Positions 10,611-57,700 of a DNA stretch of 64,000 nt are shown here, piece after piece. Origin of the DNA: Methanobrevibacter sp. (lineage in GTDB: Archaea; Methanobacteriota; Methanobacteria; Methanobacteriales; Methanobacteriaceae). Location of the stretch: positions 2,909 through 66,908 of the forward strand of contig NZ_JBGUIH010000002.1 in NCBI RefSeq assembly GCF_045112895.1. Direction: 5' to 3'. Position 1 is the first letter of the stretch, and every line of letters begins with the position of its first letter. Both the position numbers and the translations under genes were made by a program. The notes under the pieces were generated by a model. The model ran no database searches and was not told the DNA's origin. It saw only the letters and a list, made by a program, of their open reading frames with translations.

Positions 10611-10979
10611 TTAATATGATGGTTCGACCGTTACATTCAGTTTTGTTAATGTATCATTGCTGTTGAAATCGACATTATCCAAATTACTGTCATAATAAAC
10701 CGGCTCTGTTTCATTAAGACCTGTAGTCATTTCCTCTGTAACATTTATCCAATGAGGACCATCACTACTGCCATTATCAAAAGATAAAGAGATTCCGATT
10801 CCTGCACCAATAACAAATGCAACTAAAGCTAGAATCACCAAAAAAACTGTGCGTCCACTACGTTTATGTTTATTCCCAGCATTCCTAGTGGGTTTCATTC
10901 TTTTTTGTCTTCTTGAAGTTTTTTGACGATTGTCTCTTGGAGAAACCAAAACTCTTTTATCATCTTTTTTTCGTCTCAT
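10611..10979 (-). CDS. single-pass membrane protein with strongly basic N-terminus
   Basis: 122 aa. About 44 K/R-rich residues, then the TM segment VFLVILALVAFVIGAGIGISL, then an extracytoplasmic tail with N-x-T/S sequons. Starts 21 nt after the upstream gene's stop. Confidence 0.6.
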   Translation of the reverse strand: MRRKKDDKRVLVSPRDNRQKTSRRQKRMKPTRNAGNKHKRSGRTVFLVILALVAFVIGAGIGISLSFDNGSSDGPHWINVTEEMTTGLNETEPVYYDSNLDNVDFNSNDTLTKLNVTVEPSY

Positions 10980-11000
10980 TTTAATACTCTTTTCAATTTC

Positions 11001-12203
11001 TTAAGCAATAAATGCATAACCTAAAGCAATAATAACTCCCACAAAACTAAACATTCCAAGTCCCAAAACAGACATCAAATATGCAAATATGAATACAAAT
11101 GCAAAAACACCAATCAGTTTTGCTTTTTCATTTTCTATTAGATTAATTAATGTCCTTGTGAACTCTGATGGAATATTATAAGCATACAAACCATTGGCTA
11201 ATTCAAATACCACTAATGACAATGGGGCAGTTGAGCTTACATCATCTACAAGCTGAGCTCTCTCACCCGCTTCTCTTCTACTTCTTCCAACACCGGCTCT
11301 AATTTTTGCGCCGTTGTCAAGTGCAAACCATGCGGCATCAAGTCCGGCACGTATTGCCAAATCCTTAGATGGGAATCTTGCAATAAAATCATCACCGCCT
11401 TCACGATAGCCTTCAAGCTCTCCGTCACATTCGCTTTCGATGAAATTCTTAATGCCTGTCATCAACTCGACAAGCTGATTTCTGCCATGCTTGTCAATGA
11501 ATTTAGTGGAATCGATTAAATCAATGAACAGATAATTCTCCAAATCGACAGGATGTGATTCCTGAAGCAGGAATGGTGAATCAAAGACAAGCGCATATTC
11601 TCCGCCCAGTTTTGTAAATGCAATGCCTGGAAAACTGCCTACGTTTTGAGTGTAATGAATAGCACGTTCAATTGCTGCTGCACCGGTCATTCCAACAGCG
11701 GAAATTACCTGAACATCTTTGGACAATCCTATTCCAATCAGTTCGATAGCTACACGAATTGCATCATTTTTGCTTAACATTTTAGCAATCAGTTCTGTTG
11801 CGGTTTTTTCGACAACCTCACCGTTTTCGTTTTCAATAATCTTTACGAAAATATTAATTAAGTTAGATGGGTTGGGAATCTCAATGTAGAAGTAACGATC
11901 GCTACCCATAATAATATTACTTACAAGCGCATATTCCTCAATTCTGTTTTCAGCAGGAGCCAATTCATAAAATGTATAGTCTTTAGGAATATTTTCTCCA
12001 CCGACATCCCGAATAAGGTTCTGTTGAATTGAATCGGAAGTAATTTCGGCTTTTTCAAGCTCGAAAAGAATGGTTTGAGTGTAATTGAACAACTCAACAT
12101 ATTCTGTTTCTAAAGAATTTGTAGGAAAGAATTTTGTTCCAACAGCGATTGGATTTAATTTAGTAGTCAACCTGATTATTGCCTTGGTTAAAAAATTAAC
12201 CAT
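11001..12203 (-). CDS. membrane-anchored protein with GGDEF/Cas10-Palm-like nucleotide-cyclase core (GGDD motif)
   Basis: 400 aa. Residues about 222-315 read FIDLIDSTKFIDKHG ... REGGDDFIARF ... IRAGVGRS, the pattern of Palm-domain cyclases. C-terminal TM residues are about 362-400. Has an 8-nt overlap with the NYN gene. Confidence 0.55.
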   Translation of the reverse strand: MVNFLTKAIIRLTTKLNPIAVGTKFFPTNSLETEYVELFNYTQTILFELEKAEITSDSIQQNLIRDVGGENIPKDYTFYELAPAENRIEEYALVSNIIMGSDRYFYIEIPNPSNLINIFVKIIENENGEVVEKTATELIAKMLSKNDAIRVAIELIGIGLSKDVQVISAVGMTGAAAIERAIHYTQNVGSFPGIAFTKLGGEYALVFDSPFLLQESHPVDLENYLFIDLIDSTKFIDKHGRNQLVELMTGIKNFIESECDGELEGYREGGDDFIARFPSKDLAIRAGLDAAWFALDNGAKIRAGVGRSRREAGERAQLVDDVSSTAPLSLVVFELANGLYAYNIPSEFTRTLINLIENEKAKLIGVFAFVFIFAYLMSVLGLGMFSFVGVIIALGYAFIA

Positions 12204-13221
12204 CTAAGCCCCCTCCCTTCTCGAGCTCTATTTCGAACTCGCCAGGTTTTTCTAAAAGCATATCCGGCTTTACAGAAACGAAAGGAAACTTCCAGGACCC
12301 CAGTCTTCCAGCTATTGTACTTGCAATATTTCTGGAATTCCTTTTGATGAATACCTCATCATGAGCGCTTACTCGAACTAGAATATTATATGGTGCATAT
12401 TCTGTAACTTCATCAGCCAGCATAATATTCAATTCGAAATTGCCTGGTTTTGTAAATAAATCGTTGCGAACTGCAATCAAAGGTTTTTTCTCAAGACCTA
12501 ATCTGTCAGCAACAGTAACTGAAATGTTTCCTGCATTTTTAACCGCAACCTTATAATCTTTAGGATGAACAAGTACAAAAATCACATATGGAGCGGCTGT
12601 TTCAACATCATCAACCATCTCTACAATCTTGTTGAACATTGGAATTTTTGCAAAAATGTTTTCAAGCTTGGATTGTGCATTGCTATCATTATCAATACGG
12701 ATAATGGCCTGTTTAGCGATGTTTAAAGGAGAAATTTCCAAGCCTTCCTTACCTGTGTATATTTCCCATTTCTTAAAGGTCAATTCTTTAATAATCTCTT
12801 CACATATGTGCTGAAGGATATTTTTATCCTTTTTAGGTTTTTTTGGTTTTCCAAATGTGAGTCTGTCGTTTTCGATGACAAATGGAATTCTCATAGAAGA
12901 GATATTCCTGAATTCAGCAGCATAATCTCTGAATTTATCATTAGACAGAATTTTAGCTTTTTCGCGAGTAGCAATATCTAAAATAAAATGATCTGCATCA
13001 TTACCTGCTGGAACCTCTTCTACATTTTCACTTTCCAGCAATCTTAAAAATTTTTCCTTATCGTCAATGTCATGACGAAGTGATGCATCGGCAATAATTA
13101 CAAATTCATCTTCACTTTCTTCTAATGCCTTGACCGCAGCAAGAATATTAGACATTTGAGGCTGTCCATTTTCGTTTTTTACATGATATGCAACATTAGA
13201 AGCATCTACGACCACTTTCAT
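12196..13221 (-). CDS. NYN (Zc3h12a-like) ribonuclease-domain protein with tandem C-terminal repeat domains
   Basis: N-terminus VVVDASNVA...FVIIADASLRHD...GNDADHFILD...ILSNDKFRDY matches the NYN/PIN-like acidic residue pattern. The track start GTG (13230) sits inside AGGTGA, so ATG at 13221 is preferred. Confidence 0.7.
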   Translation of the reverse strand: MKVVVDASNVAYHVKNENGQPQMSNILAAVKALEESEDEFVIIADASLRHDIDDKEKFLRLLESENVEEVPAGNDADHFILDIATREKAKILSNDKFRDYAAEFRNISSMRIPFVIENDRLTFGKPKKPKKDKNILQHICEEIIKELTFKKWEIYTGKEGLEISPLNIAKQAIIRIDNDSNAQSKLENIFAKIPMFNKIVEMVDDVETAAPYVIFVLVHPKDYKVAVKNAGNISVTVADRLGLEKKPLIAVRNDLFTKPGNFELNIMLADEVTEYAPYNILVRVSAHDEVFIKRNSRNIASTIAGRLGSWKFPFVSVKPDMLLEKPGEFEIELEKGGGLDG

Positions 13222-13302: not shown

Positions 13303-14046
13303 TTATAGTTCATTTCTCGGATATTTTCCAAATAACAATTTTTCTCCACCGACATTATTTAGAAAAATCTCTATTTCATCATCTGTAATGTTATACACAT
13401 TATAAGAATTCCTGATGTTTCCCCTAAGCTTTGTAGAACATAGGGAACCGGCATTAACAACAATAGTTTCGTTTATTCTCCATATATTCGGAACATGCTT
13501 GTGTCCGGATAAAATCAAATCAACTTCATGTGTTGTTAAAGTTTTTAGAATATCGCCTGCATCTGATAAAACATTACGTTCACGACCAGTTTGTGGAATG
13601 GAAATCACATGGTGGTGCAAAGCAACAATAGAGAAATTTTCATTTATTACGCATTCATCCAATTGGTGTTCCAACCACATATGTTGAGGGCCTCCGATAT
13701 GGCCTCTATCCTCATCGGGAGAACTGCTGTCCAAACCTATTACTGTAAGGTCTTCACCAACACTCAATTTCCAGCTTCTCTCACCAATCAGCTCTTCAAA
13801 GGTCTGATAACCTAAATTACGTGCATCATGGTTTCCAGGAACTACAAATAATGGAGCTTCAAACATTTCCAAATATTTTTTTGCCTGTTCAAATTCAACA
13901 TAATAGCCGTGACCAGTCAAATCGCCGGTTAAAACTATCATATCCGGTTTTAGGTTATTGATTTCGCTTGCTGCCTGCATGAAAACTTCTTCATCAAAAT
14001 CCGATTTTGATGTGTGCAGATCTGAAATATGTGCAATTACAGTCAT
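13303..14046 (-). CDS. calcineurin-like metallophosphoesterase
   Basis: 247 aa with motifs ISDLH, TGDLT, PGNHD, LHHH and SGHKH. Starts 5 nt after the nac stop. Confidence 0.85.
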   Translation of the reverse strand: MTVIAHISDLHTSKSDFDEEVFMQAASEINNLKPDMIVLTGDLTGHGYYVEFEQAKKYLEMFEAPLFVVPGNHDARNLGYQTFEELIGERSWKLSVGEDLTVIGLDSSSPDEDRGHIGGPQHMWLEHQLDECVINENFSIVALHHHVISIPQTGRERNVLSDAGDILKTLTTHEVDLILSGHKHVPNIWRINETIVVNAGSLCSTKLRGNIRNSYNVYNITDDEIEIFLNNVGGEKLLFGKYPRNEL

Positions 14047-30407: not shown

Positions 30408-32243
30408 AAATAGTCCACTTTCCTCTAAACATTCTTCAAAGTAATGTGCAGTATGGTCCGCCTTTTCCTTAACGATAATGGCAACAATGACAGTTAAGAT
30501 TCCCATAGCCAAAAGAATCACCAATGCAGGTAGGTAATTGGACCAAACCAAACCTAATTGCGCTTCGCGTATCAGAGTAATCGCATAAGTCATCGGCAGG
30601 TACGGATTAAGCACCCTGAAAATCGGATCCATAATTTGAACGGGATAAATTCCACCGGTTCCGGATATCTGAATTACCAGAAGAACAATTGCAATCGCCT
30701 TTCCGACATTTCCCAATGCGGAAGCCAATGAATATATGAATACCATAAACACTACAGAGACTATCAGCGCCGAAAGTATGAATAACGGCACATTATCGAC
30801 ATATATTCCTAAAATAAAGGCACCTATTAATGTAACGCCAACTTGAAGAATGCTCAACACTACAAATAAAGCCAATTTGCCGAAATACATTTCAAGCGGA
30901 GAATATTTGGTTCCTTTGCTGATTCCAGTTTTCAGCATTGCGCATGAAATCAGAGCACCGACCCACATGGACAATACCAGATAGAATGGAGCGACCTGGG
31001 ATCCGTAATTCGGAACCGGGAATAGCTCATGTTTATCTAATTTTACAGGTGCCAAGAAATAATCTCCAAGTATTGTTTCATTGATGCCTGTGATGCCTGA
31101 AAGTGAATTGGCAGATGACCCTAAGGCGGCTGCTGCTGAATATAGTGCCTGTGATGCTGAATTTCCAAGCAATTGTGCGCCTGCTGCGAGACTTAACGAA
31201 CCTTCCGCAAGGTCAACTGACCCGCTAGCCAAATCACTTGCACCTTTTGCAACATCACTGGAACCGTTTGCAAGCCTTGATGAACCTTCCGCAAGGTCAA
31301 CTGAACCGTCGGCCAATTCACTGGAGCCTTTAGCTACTTCACCACTGGCATTTGCAAGTTTAATATTCCCTTCCGCATAATCTTTCATAGGTCCTTCAGG
31401 CATTGTAGACGGGTCAATTGCTGATTGTAACTGTTTTGAACCCTGTTCGACTTCACTTGCACTTTGCTTTACAACGGATGAGCCCTGTTTTATTTGGCTT
31501 GCACCATCATTGACATCTGATGCTCCTTCTTGCACTTGACTAGCGCCTTCCTGAACTTGACTTGCTCCGTCCTTAACCTGGCTTGCGCCTGAAGATACCT
31601 GGCCTGCACCTGAAGATATCTGTGCCGAACCCGCCTGAATCTGGCTTCCGCCACTAGCAAGTTGGCTTGCACCTGAAGAGAGACCTTCCTGCAATTCACC
31701 AAGCTTTCCATAAGCTGCAATATTTATAATTTCAACAATTTTTGCATTTAAAGAGGTATAAACTGAATTTGCAGCGGAATCAGTTAATTTAGCTGCAACC
31801 GGATTTGCCTTAACATTTACGATATACTCCAGTTTCGCTTGTTTAGGGTCATCGCCCATAATTGAAACGACATTTTCACTCAGATTCTTGGGCAGTATAA
31901 TGCCCGCATAATACTCGCCGCTATAAACACCGTCCCGCAGTTCGTCTTCCGTTACAAATGTCCAATCAAATTTATCATTCTTCTTAAGTTCTTTGGCCAA
32001 TTCATTTCCAATGTTTAACTGATTGCCCTCAAAATCTGTTCCATTATCCAAATTGGCAATGGCAAAATCCAAATCGTCTGTTTTTTCATAAGGATCCCAA
32101 CATGCCTGAATATTTATAAGTGCATAAAGCGAAGGCACGATAATTATCCCAATCAAAACAAGCGATACGATAGGATTTGAAAATGCTGACTTAAAATCAT
32201 CTCTAATAATTTCTATAATATTTCCAATATCTCTTCCGCTCAT
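30405..32243 (-). CDS. YhgE/Pip-domain membrane protein (ABC-2-like C-terminal membrane domain)
   Basis: 612 aa. N-terminal TM, a large extracytoplasmic region with degenerate G-A/S-S-Q/D-V/L repeats, and a C-terminal 5-TM ABC-2-type block. Confidence 0.8.
   Translation of the reverse strand: MSGRDIGNIIEIIRDDFKSAFSNPIVSLVLIGIIIVPSLYALINIQACWDPYEKTDDLDFAIANLDNGTDFEGNQLNIGNELAKELKKNDKFDWTFVTEDELRDGVYSGEYYAGIILPKNLSENVVSIMGDDPKQAKLEYIVNVKANPVAAKLTDSAANSVYTSLNAKIVEIINIAAYGKLGELQEGLSSGASQLASGGSQIQAGSAQISSGAGQVSSGASQVKDGASQVQEGASQVQEGASDVNDGASQIKQGSSVVKQSASEVEQGSKQLQSAIDPSTMPEGPMKDYAEGNIKLANASGEVAKGSSELADGSVDLAEGSSRLANGSSDVAKGASDLASGSVDLAEGSLSLAAGAQLLGNSASQALYSAAAALGSSANSLSGITGINETILGDYFLAPVKLDKHELFPVPNYGSQVAPFYLVLSMWVGALISCAMLKTGISKGTKYSPLEMYFGKLALFVVLSILQVGVTLIGAFILGIYVDNVPLFILSALIVSVVFMVFIYSLASALGNVGKAIAIVLLVIQISGTGGIYPVQIMDPIFRVLNPYLPMTYAITLIREAQLGLVWSNYLPALVILLAMGILTVIVAIIVKEKADHTAHYFEECLEESGLF
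31164..31688 (-). repeat. degenerate in-frame peptide repeats (SGASQV / GSxDLA heptad-like units) inside the YhgE/Pip gene
   Basis: Protein residues about 186-360: GASQLASGGSQIQAGSAQISSGAGQVSSGASQVKDGASQVQEGASQVQEGASDVNDGASQI..., then ADGSVDLAEGSSRLANGSSDVAKGASDLASGSVDLAEGS. This is the locally GC-richest stretch of the window. Confidence 0.75.
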
Positions 32244-49354: not shown

Positions 49355-50233
49355 TTATTCATTTATAAAATCAGGACCGCCACTACCTCCGGAACCAGAT
49401 GAAGATCCTCCGCCAGAAGAAGAACCCCCATGAGAAGAGGAACCACTACCAGAAGAAGAACCACTATGAGAAGAGGAACCGCTAGATGAAGAACTACTAC
49501 TTGATTGTTGGCTACTTCCGGAACTGGAAGAAGAACTACTACTTGATTGTTGGTTGCTTCCGGAACTGGAAGAAGAACTACCACTTGATGAGCCACTACC
49601 TGAACTGGATGATGAACTGGAGCTTGTTTGACTTGAACTGCTTGAATAATCATCTGAATAGTCACTGTCATCGTAAGTAGTATAGTTTGATGAAGTATCC
49701 TCAACCGCATCATCATAGTCTTCAGCTTCTACAGGAGCTGTGAAAACAAGACTGTCAACCATATGTTTGAGAATATCCAAATCTTCACTTCCTATGATGA
49801 TATTGTCATGAGTGGTTTCATTTCCGATACTGGCAATATAATAATCGGTACCATTGATGTGGTTTTGCTTAATATTATATCCGTGATAGCTTTCCACATC
49901 CTCTGCACCATCAAACAGGGTATTATGCATTAATGAAAATCCGTCAGAACCCTCCATGCTTAAATCTTCAGCACTATTGTATGCATTCATGAATACTTTT
50001 TTAGAAGGGCATTGATATGTTTTAATTCCATTTTCGTTTACTGTCCATGCCACATCATCAGTACTAGGCACTTCCATCATAGCGCTACTGCTAATATTTA
50101 GTGTTTCATACGTAACTTCCGATTGGGAAGTTAATGCGATACCAATGCCAACAACAAGGGCGATTGCTATTAGAATTAATGGTATTAAAATGTAATTGTC
50201 AAGTTTCACGTAAATCACCTTTTTAAATATCAC
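49355..50233 (-). CDS. N-terminally anchored extracytoplasmic protein with ~95-aa Ser/Gly-rich C-terminal tail
   Basis: 292 aa. TM segment ILIPLILIAIALVVGIGIAL, a globular middle, an acidic D/Y/S stretch, then SSSSQTSSSSSSSSGSGSSSGSSSSSSGSNQQSSSS...GGSGGPDFINE. Confidence 0.7.
   Translation of the reverse strand: MIFKKVIYVKLDNYILIPLILIAIALVVGIGIALTSQSEVTYETLNISSSAMMEVPSTDDVAWTVNENGIKTYQCPSKKVFMNAYNSAEDLSMEGSDGFSLMHNTLFDGAEDVESYHGYNIKQNHINGTDYYIASIGNETTHDNIIIGSEDLDILKHMVDSLVFTAPVEAEDYDDAVEDTSSNYTTYDDSDYSDDYSSSSSQTSSSSSSSSGSGSSSGSSSSSSGSNQQSSSSSSSSSGSSQQSSSSSSSSGSSSHSGSSSGSGSSSHGGSSSGGGSSSGSGGSGGPDFINE
49488..49585 (-). repeat. 42-nt tandem repeat (about 2.3 copies) encoding the Ser-rich tail
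   Basis: TTGATTGTTGG recurs at 49501 and 49543 (period 42 nt = 14 aa). The units are GAAGAACTACTACTTGATTGTTGG(C/T)T(A/G)CTTCCGGAACTG. Confidence 0.7.
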
Positions 50234-51702: not shown

Positions 51703-54700
51703 TTATCTTTTTTTGAAAATATCACCGCTTCCAAAGATTATGGAAACCAATGCAGAAACAATCAATAATGCAATAAGGTTTGCAGTAGAGTATTTTCCAA
51801 GGCTTGGTGTTGGATGTTTGATATTCATAGCTTTTGATAGCTTATGCTTTGTCAATTTATCAGTAAAGTTGTTACTAGGATTTTTAACAATTTTTACCAA
51901 GGCAAAATCTTCATTATTGCTCAAATCAATGTCAAATGTATCGCTTACTACATTTACAATATTCCTGAAGACTCCATCCTTAATTGCTTCGAATTTCAAT
52001 AACAGTTTTTCTTCACCGCCCGCAGCAAGTTCATCAATGGACCATTCATAAGTTGAAGTATCGAATATGCCTCTTGTCGCTTTAACGGATTTTAAAATCA
52101 AAGATTTATCAAATATTTCCCTAACTTTAACATTCAAAGCATCGTCCGGGCCTGCATTAGTCAACTTGATTGAATAGGCTACCAAGTCTCCAACCTTATA
52201 TTGATATTTTGAAACTGTCTTTGTAATAGCCAAATCGGCTGCAGGATAAACATGAATCATATCTTCAGCCTCATTGTTCTCAGGATTAGGATCCTCTTCA
52301 TTGCCGGAAACGATAGCGAAATTAGTAATATCGCCAGTTTCGACAACTTTTGATGTAATCTCTAATTTTTTAAAGTCACCGACTTCCAGTTCGCCGATAT
52401 ACCATATTCCAGCTTCATAGATTCCATAACCCTCTGCACTAATGAATTTTAAGCCGTCAGGCAATAAGTCCTCAACAATGACACCAGTTGCATCATTCAG
52501 ACCTTCATTTGAAACTATCAATGTCCATTTGACAATGTCCCCATAATTTGCATTGGAAACATTGGCTGACTTTTCAATTGAAAGATCTGAAACTGGAAAT
52601 GCGTCAATTGACTCATTATCATAGTTATTGGACATGTTAATATCATATTCATTGGCTATTGCAGATATGTTGTTGGTAATGGTTCCCAAACCATTTACAT
52701 AACAACTAATATTCAGATATTCAACTCCTCCTTTGATTAAATAATCCAAGCTCCAGACACCATTTTCATAAGTTCCTCTACTTGACACATAGCCATTAAA
52801 GATCAATTCTTTAGGCAACTCATCATATACACGAACATCTGTTGCATTATCAGGACCGATATTCATAACAGTGATTCTCCAAGTAATCACATCTCCGAAG
52901 AACAGATTATCATCATTAACTTCTTTTAAAACAGCAATATCAGCAGCTGACGGCACATCGATAGATTCATTATCAACATTATTAGTTAAATCAGGGTCAT
53001 ATTCGTTTCCGGAAATCTTAGCTATATTTGTTAAATGACCTGTTTCATTAACTTTACATATGATTTCTAATCTTTCTGTTTCATCCTTTTCAAGACAACA
53101 TACGTTCCATATGCCCTCATCATAAAATCCTTTACTTGCTGTATAATTTAACAATATCAATCCATTCGGCAAAGCATCTTCTACAACGATGCCGGTTACT
53201 TTATCCGGACCTTTGTTTGATGCGATTAATGTCCATTTGACTAAATCACCATAATTGACCTCACTATCATTAACCGTTTTGATAATGGTCAAATCACCAG
53301 AGTTATTAACAACAATAGATTTACCATCCTTGTTATTTTTCAGATTATAATCAAATTCTTTGGCGCTGACTTTAGCATTGTTTGTAATATTGCCGGTTGC
53401 ATTTACTCTAGATATGATATTCAGTTCAATTGATTTTCCTTTGTTTAAAGTGCCAATATTCCAAACTCCAGCATTATGATTATACTTGTTGTGTGAATCA
53501 TCACTAACCCAAATTAAAGATTCTGGGAGAAAATCGATAACCTTGACATCATGGGCATCATCAGGACCGTTATTCTTGACTGTTAAAGTCCATTTGACTA
53601 AGTCTCTGAAATTATGATTTGAATTATTCACCAATTTTAGAACTTCCATATCTGATGCTGGATTGATGGTGATTGATTTATTGGCAACATTATTCGTTAA
53701 GTTATAATCATATTCATTGCCGGTTATATTTGCAGAATTGACAAATTTGCCTGTTTTATTTGCTTGTGTAATAATGGTTATCTTTAATGTTTCGCCAACA
53801 TCCAAATTACCAATATTGAACACATTATTGGAGTAGGAACCTTTATCTAAAGTAGAATTTATATAAACAAATCCTTTCGGCAATATGTCCACTACCTTAA
53901 CGCCGGTTGCCTTGTTTGGACCATTATTCTTAATGGTTAATGTCCATTTGACTAAACTGGTGTAATTTGCAGTTGAAGCATTAACTGATTTTGTAATTTC
54001 CAAATCCGCTGAAGGTTTAACATTGATTTGCTCATCATCATAATTATTGGTCAAATCATAATCAAACTCGCGAGAAGTTACATTAACCTTATTGGTAATT
54101 TTTCCTGTTGCATTGACTTTACAGATTATTGAAATTTGAACAGATGCTAAAGGATTTAAAGTTCCAATATTCCAAATACCATTACTTTTATTATAATTTC
54201 CATTACAGCTAACAAATATCAATGATTTAGGAAGGATATCAACCACTTTTACATCATGAGCAACATTCGGACCATTATTTAAAACTTTAATAATCCATTT
54301 AATTGAATCTGCGTAATTTGGATTTGAATTATTGACTAGTTTTTGAACTTCCAAATCACAAGCGGGATTAACATTGACCGCTTTTTGATCATTATTATTA
54401 GTAAAATCATAATCAAACTCACTGGAGGATACATTGACCTTATTAGTTATTTTTCCTGTCGAATCGGCCTTAGCGACAATATTCAACTTAACGGACTTGC
54501 CAACACCTAAAGTGCCAACAGTCCAGACCCCAGTCCTATTATTGTAAGCAGACTGGTCACAACTAATAAATTTTAAGGAATTTGGAAGCACATCCACAAC
54601 TCTCACATCATGAGCAACATCAGGACCGTTATTTGAAACTTTAATAGTCCATTTAACCAAATCATGATAATTAAGACTAGTTACATTAGCAGATTTTACA

Positions 54701-57700
54701 ACACCCACATCAACAGCAGGATTGACATTGACTGCTTTTTGATCCTTATTATTAGTCAAATCATAATCGAACTCACGAGAAGTTACATTAACATTATTAA
54801 CAATTTTACCGGTCACATCGACCTTGCAAACAATATTCAGCTTAACAGACTTACCGACACCCAAAGTGCCAACAGTCCAAACGCCAGTCTTATTATTGTA
54901 AGCAGACAAATCACAACTAATAAATTTTAAGGAACTTGGAAGCACATCCACAACTTTCACATCATGAGCAACATCCGGACCATTATTCTTAACAGTCAAA
55001 GTCCACTTAACCAAATCACCATAATTAGGAGCAGTCACATTAACCTTTTTCACAACACTCACATCCACAGCTGATGTAACACCAACCTGTGCCTCATCAA
55101 AATTATTGGATAAGTCATAATCAAACTCCTTCAAAGACACAGTAGCATTATTCTTAATAACACCAGTACCATTAACCCTAGCAACAATATTCAATTTAAC
55201 AGACTTACCGACACCTAAAGTACCAACAGTCCAAACACCAGTCTTATTATTATAATTTCCATCACTACTGACAAAAATCAAAGACCCTGGAAGAACATCA
55301 GCAACTTTAACGCTATGGGCAACATCAGGACCATTATTCTTAACAGTCAAAGTCCACTTAACCAAATCACCATAATTAGGAGCAGTAACATTAACCTTTT
55401 TCACAACAGCCACATCAGCTGCTTGGGGAACTGTGATTGATTTTTCATCATGATTATTGTTAAGGTTGGTATCAAATTCAATTCCTGTAACATTTGCTTT
55501 ATTTACAATATCACCAGTTTTATTTACTAAAGTTACAATATTTACAACAAATGTTTTTCCAACATTTAATGATTCTATTTTCAAGACGCCTGTTTTTGGA
55601 TTAAATTTACCATTACTATCGTCGCTTTTCCAGATTAGACCATCCGGCAATAAGTCATTTACAACGACACCAGTAGCATTATTCGGACCATTATTAGCAA
55701 TACTTAATGTCCAAACAATCAAATCCCCATAATTGACTGAATCTTTATTGGAAGATTTAGTTATCCTATTGTCAATTTTCGGATAAACATTAAATACTGT
55801 GGTGTTTGTAATTGCTTTATAATAGTTGTCTTCAAAGTGTTTTGCTGTAACATAGTATTTTCCAGGCTTCAAGTTAGTTAAATTGGCTGATACTTCACCT
55901 AAATAATTTGATTTTAAAGTTTTATTATAAACAACAGTACCATCCTCATGTTTAACGGTCATTAATATTTTCATATTATATTCCCTATCATCCTGATATA
56001 ACTTACCGCTCATTGTGGCGCCAGAAACAGGGTGTTCTCCGTCGATTTCAATTTTATTATAATTGGCGGCATTATAAATTGCATTTGAAACAGCCAAATT
56101 ATCATAATCTGCAATATTATTTCCACCATAAATGACAGAACTAACTCTTTCCACTTCGCCATAGTAAATATCCTGAGCAGAGACTGGCAAATGATAAACC
56201 CATGCCTGATTTTGGTATAGGGTGTTGTTTTTTAATTTGAATTCAACCCCATGTTTATCAAAATAAATTGCACTACCATTCCTTGCAGTATTGTACTTGA
56301 AAATATTATTCTGAGCCAATACTTTTGTAGAATTGACATAGATAGCGCCACCCAATCCGTCATTCAACTTTTTGACATCAGGTATTGCTTCGTTTGCAAT
56401 GAATTTAGAATTTTTAACTGTTGTGTCATTGCCTTTAATAAATACGGCACCACCATCAATATTAGCAATGTTTCTGTTAAATTCAGACTTTATGATTTTG
56501 ACATTGTTCGCCTCAATATTCACGGCACCACCATATTCTGATGCATAATTATCATCAAATGTTGACTTTTCGATTTTAATATTAAATCCATCTAATTTGA
56601 CTGCACCTCCTAAAGGAGCTTTATTACCTTTAAAAACACTATTAGTAATGTTCAAATCCATATAATCCTGATAATCCATCAATATGGATACCGCTCCACC
56701 AAAAACATTTGCAGTATTGTTTATTAATGTGCAGTTGTTTAGGTTTCCGGATGCATGATATGTCAAAGCACCTCCATGATCGGCCGTATTGTTTATGAAA
56801 ACACAGTTGTAATAAGATGAACCATTTCTAACACATCCTGCACCTGCATGACCTGAACCGTCAGATGTCACAACTATATTGTTTTTGAATAAACAATCCC
56901 GAACAACACCATAAGATGGTTCCGTATCCAATCCAATCTGTATTGCTCCGCCACATAGGGCATCAGGTCCGCGAATATAGTTTGAATCAAAAATACAGTT
57001 TATTATTTTAAAGTCATGACTAAACGCTCCCACTGCCCCTGCAGCAATTCCGGCACCATTCTTTGTGAAATTACAGTTTTTCAATGTCAGGCCTTGAGCG
57101 GTCTCTGCTTTATAGGGAGTATGTATTGCACCTGATGTAACATTTGCAAAGTTATTTTCAAAAACGCAATTATCAAATGTTATGAATTTGGCCGATACTC
57201 TCACAGCCGCACCTCTAGCATCCGTATATCCGTTGATGAATTTCAGATTGCTGAAACTGGATTGGGCTCCTCCGGAAGTAATCTTTAAAATGGCTGTAGA
57301 TTTTTTGCCGTTTAGAGTAGCCTTAGATGATGAAGTGAAAGTCAACTTTTTGTTGAGTGTAATCGTATCATCCGCACTTGCCGGGACAAATGTTCCGCTG
57401 AGCTTTATTGTATCTCCACTATCCGCATTATCTATCACCCTCTGAATATCACTAAATGTTCCGCCATTTAGCGAGTAGGAATTTGCTTGCAATATTTCAT
57501 TTTCTTGAGTATTCGACAGTCTTATTTCATTTTCTTGAGAATTCTCCATCATATCTTCTAAATCAACTTCCACACTAACATCATCAGTCTCATTTAAATC
57601 TAAAGCATAGGCCTGATCGATATTTAAGCCTACAGCAGTGAACATTAAAAAGATGAGAGCTAATGAAATGAGGAAGGTTTTGCTAATAGCTATCTTTTGA

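Follow-up and report, generated by a model that had tools for sequence, protein, structure and literature searches.

Here we focus on a pair of adjacent archaeal genes, one with a predicted NYN-type ribonuclease (RNase) domain and one with a predicted membrane-anchored, cyclase-like domain, found together with a third, small membrane-protein gene in Methanobrevibacter sp. (NCBI RefSeq assembly GCF_045112895.1, contig NZ_JBGUIH010000002.1). The stretch of DNA that was analysed is 64,000 nt long and is referred to as the window. All coordinates are those of the window, the genes are numbered from the upstream-most of the trio, and every feature of the locus lies on the minus strand. Gene 1 (12196..13221) encodes 341 amino acids (aa) from its ATG and comprises a predicted NYN RNase domain, a helical linker and a duplicated module. 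Gene 2 (11001..12203) encodes 400 aa, which are predicted to form an N-terminal domain (N1), a degenerate cyclase homology domain (CHD′), a second cyclase homology domain (CHD) and a C-terminal transmembrane (TM) hairpin; its AlphaFold2 (AF2) model has a mean pLDDT of 84.6 and a pTM of 0.75. Gene 3 (10611..10979) encodes a small single-pass membrane protein of 122 aa. An earlier reading of the same DNA (the original prediction) had described three co-directional minus-strand genes, and all three open reading frames are present. So are all of the motifs it quoted, namely VVVDASNVA, IIADASLRHD, GNDADHFILD and LSNDKFRDY in gene 1 and FIDLIDSTKFIDKHG, REGGDDFIARF and IRAGVGRS in gene 2, and it placed the GGDD of gene 2 correctly at 11388..11399. 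The best homologues of the locus are Methanobrevibacter proteins that are 100% identical.

Genes 1 and 2 overlap by the 8 nt ATGGTTAA (12196..12203), and a GGAGG Shine-Dalgarno sequence for gene 2 (12212..12216) is found 8 nt upstream of the gene 2 ATG, inside the EKGG codons of gene 1. The conserved C-terminal Glu-Lys-Gly-Gly of gene 1 (12208-12216) doubles in this way as the Shine-Dalgarno sequence of its neighbour, and since the same codons encode both, protein sequence and coupling signal are constrained jointly. This embedded arrangement, with the GGAGG within the 3' end of gene 1, recurs in related loci. The 8-nt overlap itself, from which translational coupling had first been proposed, is kept in 73 of 81 related loci and is 11 nt long in 4 more (77 of 81 together), while in Methanobacterium the two genes abut with a gap of 0 nt and in Methanopyrus they are separated by 1 nt. 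On this evidence genes 1 and 2 are predicted to be translationally coupled.

Synteny was followed through 82 loci (80 from related genomes and 2 distant ones), and gene 1 adjoins gene 2 in all but one of them (81/82). The complete NAC-phosphoesterase-gene 1-gene 2-gene 3-argJ block is found in about 75 of the 82, with individual links kept in 75-81. As had been described for the window, argJ starts less than 20 nt (10-19 nt) downstream of gene 3, and the genes for a metallophosphoesterase and NAC lie upstream of gene 1. In these genomes the products of genes 1 and 2 share 87-96% identity with the window proteins, that of gene 3 only 33-70%. The original prediction carried the caveat that the operon could be a conserved methanogen housekeeping module, and given the synteny, the single-copy occurrence and the lineage-wide distribution described below, this caveat proved to be the right reading. 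One further copy of the whole block, with 72-90% protein identity, was found on a 5239-bp contig deposited as 'Bacteroidaceae bacterium' (CAVDAS010000116.1); most probably an archaeal contig was mis-binned here into a bacterial metagenome-assembled genome.

The nature of gene 2 is the central question, and the sequence databases give little help at first. The full-length protein has no Pfam (E<=1) or NCBIfam family, and phmmer finds no PDB chain for it. A profile built from the gene 2 family is more informative. Searched against the PDB, it finds the CHD of the Mycobacterium tuberculosis adenylyl cyclase Rv1900c (1YBT) with E=1.6e-4 for the full-length profile and 2.3e-5 for the domain only, followed by four sequences of the M. 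avium adenylyl cyclase Ma1120 at E about 0.02, so that the five best matches are all CHDs. The AF2 model leads to the same enzymes. In Foldseek it has 55 PDB hits at E<1e-3, and ranks 1 to 40 are taken by class III cyclases alone, with TM scores of 0.5-0.57 and rmsd values of 3.3-4.8 to the single CHDs of Rv1900c and Ma1120; GTP cyclohydrolase III follows at rank 41 and Csm1 at rank 44 (E=3.6e-4). Annotation of relatives agrees with this, one orthologue carrying the NCBI name 'adenylate/guanylate cyclase domain-containing protein' and the Methanopyrus member being assigned by InterProScan to Gene3D 3.30.70.1230 / SSF55073. Gene 2 is thus predicted to have a palm-type cyclase fold, nearest by profile and by modelled structure to class III CHDs. 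Its class III-type CHD is placed at residues 216-~350 (11154..11558), with an uncertain C-terminal boundary, and shares with adenylyl cyclase C1-C2, soluble adenylyl cyclase, Rv1900c and Ma1120 the βααββαβ palm fold.

The likeness extends to the catalytic centre. Class III cyclases have their first metal-binding aspartate in a loop of the form F-x-D-[IL]-x-[GD]-S-[TS], and a G-D hairpin carries the second. Alignment of the family profiles with 1YBT and Ma1120 pairs the FxD228-L-I-x-S-T of gene 2 with FtDIvGST, which puts the D228 codon (11520..11522) at the first aspartate (FxDIxGFT), and pairs G270-D271, within the GGDD of G269-D272, with the 'GD' hairpin of the second. These motif alignments indicate that D228 and D271 correspond to the two metal-binding aspartates, on β1 ('DIxGFT') and between β2 and β3 ('GD'). 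The serine and threonine of the triphosphate loop are retained as S232 and T233. Conservation was followed in 20 aligned orthologues from three genera, from Methanobrevibacter to Methanopyrus, and D228, S232, G240, R267, G269, G270, D271, D272, G304, G306, S308 and R309 are invariant, the catalytic residues remaining so down to an overall identity of 27%. Four acidic residues had been singled out for such a comparison by the original prediction; three of these (D228, D271 and D272) are invariant and the fourth, D231, is a glycine in Methanopyrus.

The GGDD motif had led to a different framing, in which gene 2 was set beside the GGDEF diguanylate cyclases and the Palm domain of Cas10. GGDD is the motif form found in Cas10, and the R-x-G-G-D-[DE]-F of gene 2 resembles the RxGGDEF of PleD and WspR, with which it shares the palm superfamily. 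In gene 2 this stretch is an invariant R-E-G-G-D-D-F, with Asp for the second Glu of RxGG[DE]EF, a motif that is non-discriminating alone within the palm superfamily. Unlike the GGDEF proteins, gene 2 has no match to PF00990, and its first motif is the DIxG[FS]T of class III rather than DxDxFK. No GGDEF chain appears in the PDB profile searches at E<=10 or in the Foldseek top 50. Cas10/Csm1 shares the GGDD motif and the palm fold and is recovered by Foldseek at rank 44 (E=3.6e-4), a much weaker similarity than to class III CHDs, and gene 2 differs from it in having no HD domain, no cas neighbours, no CRISPR array and no CARF or SAVED partner. Membership of gene 2 in either the GGDEF or the Cas10 family was rejected on these grounds. 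Of what was first claimed, the palm-type cyclase fold and its conserved acidic residues stand, with class III as the nearest relatives; the GGDEF and Cas10 framing does not.

The top-scoring Foldseek targets are themselves two-CHD enzymes, the C1-C2 pair of adenylyl cyclase AC9 and soluble adenylyl cyclase, aligned over about 455 columns. With the best targets being two-domain proteins, an internal repeat was suspected, and it was then confirmed by hhalign. Residues 102-211 of gene 2 (CHD′, 11571..11900) align with residues 216-350 at a probability of 96% (E=2e-9), independent alignments repeat the result (E=1.5e-9), and column-shuffled controls reach a probability of at most 1.4%. CHD′ is a degenerate copy: E108 stands in for D228, T136 for D271 and E137 for D272, helix α1 is deleted, and its profile finds no match in the PDB. 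Since the N-terminal copy is degenerate, the two copies in gene 2 would form a tandem pseudo-heterodimer within one chain that has a single catalytic site, like mammalian adenylyl cyclase C1-C2 or soluble adenylyl cyclase. Two CHDs per chain with the metal ligands in one alone is indeed what is seen in tandem class III cyclases. The region ahead of the CHD had been set down as an unknown N-terminal domain of ~220 aa; it is instead a domain of ~100 aa followed by the degenerate copy of the cyclase-like domain.

The domain of ~100 aa is N1 (residues 1-101, 11901..12203), an alpha/beta domain by DSSP that is set off from CHD′ by a dip in pLDDT at residues 91-100. It has no PDB or Pfam match, and its invariant residues are G22, T23, P27, E34, N40, N62 and E90. 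At the other end of the protein, residues 359-400 (11004..11129) form a hydrophobic helical hairpin that is predicted to be a membrane anchor. This agrees with the C-terminal TM anchor noted from the start: about 38 hydrophobic residues are found there, modelled by AF2 as two helices (359-379 and 383-399), and 1-2 TM segments are predicted for the orthologous group (OG) of gene 2 in a published pangenomic study (Lupo et al., 2025; PMC11915815). The additional N1 domain and the C-terminal rather than N-terminal position of the anchor set gene 2 apart from class III cyclases, as do its extra acidic residue (GGDD) and its archaeal, lineage-restricted occurrence.

Two metagenomic proteins share parts of gene 2. 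A 251-aa protein (P0152) joins a vWA-like N-terminus (DRSGSMSG) to a C-terminal β-hairpin, helix and TM hairpin as in gene 2, with 49% identity to gene 2 residues 332-398 (11010-11210). This suggests that the anchor region can occur as a module of its own and that the CHD would end near residue 330. A 447-aa protein (P0132) has a 66-residue stretch that is 79% identical to gene 2 residues 67-132 in otherwise unrelated surroundings; it is probably an assembly or gene-calling chimera.

The degeneracy of one CHD raises the question of whether the other is active at all. Gene 2 may be an inactive pseudo-enzyme, a scaffold that anchors the RNase (or RNA-binding protein) encoded by gene 1 at the membrane. 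A scaffold would suit the strong divergence of the protein, the lack of any Pfam match, the clear degeneracy of one CHD copy and the stoichiometric complex that translational coupling suggests. Against it stands the strict invariance of D228, S232, R267 and GGDD at an overall identity of 27%. Such invariance is difficult to account for unless the protein is catalytic or, at the minimum, binds nucleotide or metal, and we regard a purely structural role as distinctly improbable.

The N-terminal part of gene 1 is easier to place. Residues 2-136 match the Pfam family RNase_Zc3h12a (PF11977) at E=2e-18 and 67.1 bits, well over the cut-off of 23, and the AF2 model of this part has a pLDDT of 80-90. 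Foldseek matches it to ZC3H12C, MCPIP1/Regnase-1 and KHNYN (E about 1e-6, TM scores 0.63-0.70), and the signature residues D6, N9, D45, D77, S93, N94 and D95 are invariant among orthologues. Pfam score, PIN-like fold and acidic residues together confirm the prediction, first made from motifs, that residues 1-136 (12814..13221) form a Zc3h12a/Regnase-type NYN RNase domain. In its fold and its signature (DxSN…D…SND) it resembles Regnase-1/MCPIP1, ZC3H12C and KHNYN. Unlike these RNases it has neither a CCCH zinc finger nor a KH domain; its fusion partner is a novel duplicated module, and a cyclase-like gene shares its operon. The homologues of gene 1 number 411 and are all of the Methanobacteriaceae type.

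Behind the NYN domain lie a predicted helical linker (residues 137-204, 12610..12813), modelled as helices of low confidence, and two repeats of about 65 aa, repeat 1 at residues 205-272 (…AGNISVTVADRLGLEKKPLIAVRNDLFTKPGNFEL…; 12406..12609) and repeat 2 at residues 273-338 (…SRNIASTIAGRLGSWKFPFVSVKPDMLLEKPGEFEI…; 12208..12405). A duplicated C-terminal module had been suspected, and hhalign bears it out: the two repeats are mutually homologous with a probability of 97%, E=3e-11 and 40% identity over 60 columns. Across three genera P247, R252, N253, D254 and L255 are invariant in repeat 1, and R297, I299, A300, S301, T302, K311, F312 and P313 in repeat 2. Profile searches with the linker and C-terminal module return no Pfam or PDB family. 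A repeat-unit profile likewise finds no PDB relative for the single repeat, and none of 16 repeat units matches a Pfam family; the best PDB match of the repeat, the helix-turn-helix segment of a Zα domain, is non-significant (E about 0.8). A KH-domain identity was considered for the repeats and rejected, as no KH chain is found in the PDB at E<=10 and the loops read NAGN/NSRN, not GxxG. The AF2 model is unreliable for this module (pLDDT 30-60), and because of this the Foldseek matches of gene 1 that rank below the NYN group are noise. No relationship was seen between the module and the domains of gene 2 (hhalign probabilities <3%), and a metagenome scan with the module alignment for other architectures or lineages yielded only rumen and gut relatives of 68-95% identity.

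It is in Methanopyrus that the two halves of gene 1 come apart. The gene that abuts the gene 2 orthologue there (L081:5283-5999) encodes 238 aa and matches gene 1 only over residues 133-334 (BLASTP, E=2e-24), a span in which the helical linker is kept. This protein has no NYN domain, which agrees with its blank InterProScan entry in the supplement of the pangenomic study (Lupo et al., 2025; PMC11915815). Since the Methanopyrus partner keeps the module only, it is the duplicated module, and not the nuclease as originally supposed, that appears to be the evolutionarily conserved partner of gene 2. The NYN domain would then be an effector domain, seen only in the sampled Methanobacteriales orthologues.

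How widely is the pair distributed? When 1.84 billion representative proteins were searched exhaustively with phmmer, the gene 2 family alone was recovered, and the other full-length gene 2 clusters are those of Methanobacterium (50% identity) and Methanopyrus (28%), with no more. The same pair was listed as an uncharacterised 'cluster D' (OG0001213, NYN; OG0001214, nucleotide cyclase) by Lupo et al. (2025, mSystems; PMC11915815), whose pangenomic screen looked for genes that every pseudomurein archaeon possesses, with OG0001214 found in pseudomurein archaea only and in one copy per genome. Methanothermobacter thermautotrophicus also carries the pair (Lupo et al., 2025; PMC11915815). Genes 1 and 2 thus appear, from their sequence distribution, to be a single-copy core pair restricted to Methanobacteriales and Methanopyrales, the pseudomurein methanogens. 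Cluster D agrees with our pair in the annotation of both proteins (NYN; nucleotide cyclase with >1 TM segment) and in the Methanopyrus assembly concerned (GCA/GCF_002201915.1). It differs in that the pair was only listed, without domain dissection, catalytic-residue analysis or mechanism. The pair is therefore already known from that listing, and is partly annotated by InterPro and NCBI. Three points appear to be new: two CHDs lie in tandem in one chain (CHD′-CHD), the catalytic residues map to class III and not to GGDEF or Cas10, and the partner that is conserved is the duplicated module, not NYN. Searches of the available literature by protein accession and for methanogen cyclases of cyclic AMP (cAMP) gave nothing beyond this study and a 2023 review of second messengers in archaea (PMC10249747).

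With a distribution of this kind, a connection to the pseudomurein envelope comes to mind, for example through sensing or regulating the synthesis or turnover of the wall close to the membrane. The phyletic pattern is identical to that of pseudomurein, the pair was recovered in a pseudomurein-specific screen, gene 2 is predicted to be membrane-anchored, and at the Methanobacterium locus a Mur-ligase gene lies a few kb downstream. Lupo et al. themselves judged cluster D probably unrelated to pseudomurein synthesis (PMC11915815). The catalytic bulk of gene 2 is moreover predicted to be cytoplasmic, no wall-related domain was detected, and the phyletic pattern fits any trait common to the two related orders equally well. 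We consider this connection quite unlikely, and it would in any case be compatible with a signalling cyclase, not exclusive of it.

The remaining genes of the block are less firmly tied to the pair. Gene 3 has, as described at the outset, a K/R-rich head of 44 residues followed by one TM segment, and it is found in 75 of the 82 loci, where it is 33-70% identical and 80-161 aa long. The head, with 15-28 basic residues and variable length, is confined to the clade closest to the window, whereas more distant Methanobrevibacter proteins have 1-4 basic residues ahead of the TM segment and begin nearly at the TM helix itself, which suggests that it is a recent lineage-specific expansion. All the Methanobrevibacter orthologues have the TM segment and, in addition, an acidic tail with many N-glycosylation sequons (N-x-S/T; motif HVENVTxEMTTNL). 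With Methanobacterium the likeness is limited to the TM segment, and no counterpart was found at the Methanopyrus locus. Gene 3 is probably a fast-evolving positional neighbour and not a core component. The idea that it is a functional partner, or a conserved third component of the module, was given up in view of its low identity, its variable length, its lineage-specific head and its absence in Methanopyrus.

Upstream of gene 1, the metallophosphoesterase (13303..14046; Pfam Metallophos E=4e-20) is a candidate cyclic-nucleotide phosphodiesterase. In the PDB its nearest relatives are GpdQ and two class III cyclic-nucleotide phosphodiesterases, Rv0805 and Icc (E about 1e-8), and at 58.8 bits it stays below the cut-off of 225 for the CpdA equivalog (NCBIfam PRK11148). 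It is syntenic with the pair in 76 of the 82 loci, Methanobacterium included, and may tentatively be regarded as an accessory or degradative partner of the module.

A cyclase-fold gene that adjoins a nuclease gene and a small membrane protein is reminiscent of anti-virus signalling, and the original prediction had placed the operon within the logic of type III CRISPR, CBASS and Pycsar, as a cyclase with two effectors, one a nuclease and one a membrane protein. The Cas10-like GGDD and a faint similarity to PycC in PADLOC (E=0.034), seen for the Methanopyrus protein only, would point the same way. PADLOC gives no significant match. No homologues were found in 50,697 phage records, the window contains no CRISPR array, the loci have no cas neighbours, and an Rfam scan of the window found no match. 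The absence of cas genes and of CARF or SAVED domains, already noted in the original prediction, was borne out by the gene neighbourhoods and by Pfam searches of the module proteins, which also revealed no recognisable domain for binding cyclic nucleoside monophosphates (cNMPs). Far from behaving as a defence island, the pair is single-copy within an invariant NAC-metallophosphoesterase-gene 1-gene 2-gene 3-argJ synteny (75-81 of 82 loci) and is vertically inherited across one archaeal lineage; the nuclease domain is dispensable in Methanopyrus, and the membrane protein is poorly conserved. A defence system was therefore rejected as a candidate. The defence reading is extremely improbable and is effectively refuted by the distribution.

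The reading that we favour, with a probability of roughly one half, is that of a housekeeping, vertically inherited two-gene module, in which gene 2 would act as a nucleoside triphosphate (NTP) cyclase that makes a signal and gene 1 as its translationally coupled partner and RNase output. Building on the domain assignments, conservation and distribution, we infer the catalysis, its product, the interaction between the two proteins and the regulation of the RNase. Gene 2 would be tethered at the cytoplasmic face of the membrane via its C-terminal helical hairpin, and as an active single-site nucleotidyl cyclase, or a near relative that uses NTP, it would make from NTP a nucleotide signal that is cyclic or otherwise of cyclase type. 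Translational coupling would fix the stoichiometry in which gene 1 is produced with gene 2, and the duplicated module of gene 1 would bind the cyclase or its product. In Methanobacteriales the signal would be coupled to the fused Regnase-type NYN endoribonuclease, so that control would be exerted post-transcriptionally. Breakdown of the signal may fall to the Rv0805/CpdA-like metallophosphoesterase encoded next to the pair.

Several observations weigh against this model. Gene 2 departs from class III cyclases in that the Pfam model Guanylate_cyc (PF00211) is unmatched, even by the isolated domains of four orthologues at E<=10. The invariant R267 is found at the position of the base-specifying Lys, so that the base-specifying pair of class III, Lys/Asp for ATP and of Glu/Cys type for GTP, is not seen, and β4 (301-306) runs directly into α4 (309-321), the dimerisation-arm hairpin with the second specificity residue being absent. 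The α4 equivalents read SRREAGERA in the CHD and TGAAAIERA in CHD′, and R309, E314, E179 and R180 are invariant there, with no alignable Asn. Of the six canonical catalytic residues of class III only the two aspartates are identifiable, the transition-state Asn/Arg pair being unmappable. In addition, the Methanopyrus pair lacks linkage to the metallophosphoesterase. Other archaea in which cAMP was detected (Haloferax, Sulfolobus) do not have the family, which therefore cannot be a general archaeal cyclase. The sensor role of the duplicated module is conjecture, since no fold or relative was found for it. Finally, the fold itself also supports other chemistry, as the GTP cyclohydrolase III at Foldseek rank 41 illustrates.

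This last point opens the way to an explanation in which gene 2 keeps the cyclase/palm fold and carries out non-cyclase NTP chemistry, such as hydrolysis like that of GTP cyclohydrolase III or nucleotidyl transfer to RNA or another acceptor, with gene 1 handling RNA, and the pair serves metabolism, not signalling. The enzyme from Methanocaldococcus jannaschii (MJ0145) is, like gene 2, an archaeal two-domain protein with a cyclase-like palm fold, and it aligns over about 256 columns (E=3e-4). That four of the six class III catalytic positions are unidentifiable would fit such chemistry, as would the RNase carried by the partner, the nucleic-acid-binding nature of the helix-turn-helix segment to which the repeat finds its best, non-significant match, and the lack of any recognisable cNMP-binding, CARF or SAVED domain in the module. 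MJ0145 is a soluble enzyme of riboflavin/F420 biosynthesis. It has neither a membrane anchor nor an NYN partner, and class III cyclases beat it by two orders of magnitude in Foldseek E-value. They are also the sole significant sequence-profile matches of gene 2, which has no Pfam match to the GTP cyclohydrolase III family and shows precisely the cyclase arrangement of metal-binding Asp pair and triphosphate loop. Non-cyclase chemistry is possible, if somewhat unlikely, and a signalling cyclase with a coupled partner is the reading that we retain.

Elsewhere in the window, a 354-bp tandem repeat was found at 54205-55417 (3.4 copies, 78% matches), and several shorter repeats with periods that are multiples of three were also seen (31198-31622, 49394-49618). 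The tandem repeats of the window probably lie inside genes for repetitive surface or adhesin-like proteins.

The significance of the pair lies in an old gap in archaeal physiology. Cyclic AMP has been measured in archaea, including M. thermautotrophicus, and at the time of the 2023 review no archaeal enzyme or protein that makes, degrades or binds it had been characterised, the archaeal CYTH 'class IV cyclases' being really triphosphatases (PMC10249747). At its boldest, our proposal is that gene 2 is the cyclic-nucleotide synthase behind the Methanothermobacter cAMP measured in 1986 and, as a functional class III-type cyclase lineage that is native to Archaea, the first of its kind; that the duplicated module of gene 1 is a new cyclic-nucleotide receptor or cyclase regulatory subunit gating a Regnase-type RNase; and that the Rv0805-like phosphoesterase is the off-switch. 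Taken as a whole this is unlikely, and if true it would amount to a housekeeping axis with a membrane cyclase at one end and RNA cleavage at the other. For Methanothermobacter genetic tools are now available, and the hypothesis is therefore directly testable. With its conserved catalytic residues, a predicted single active site in a tandem architecture, an obligate partner and a built-in RNase domain, the family gives one major methanogen lineage a specific candidate, open to test, for the so far unexplained source of its cAMP, and the gene 1 module could be a new receptor or regulatory domain. Moreover, the pair appears to be universal and exclusive in Methanobacteriales and Methanopyrales, which include the dominant methanogens of the rumen and the human gut, and as a lineage-specific target it may be of interest for methane mitigation.

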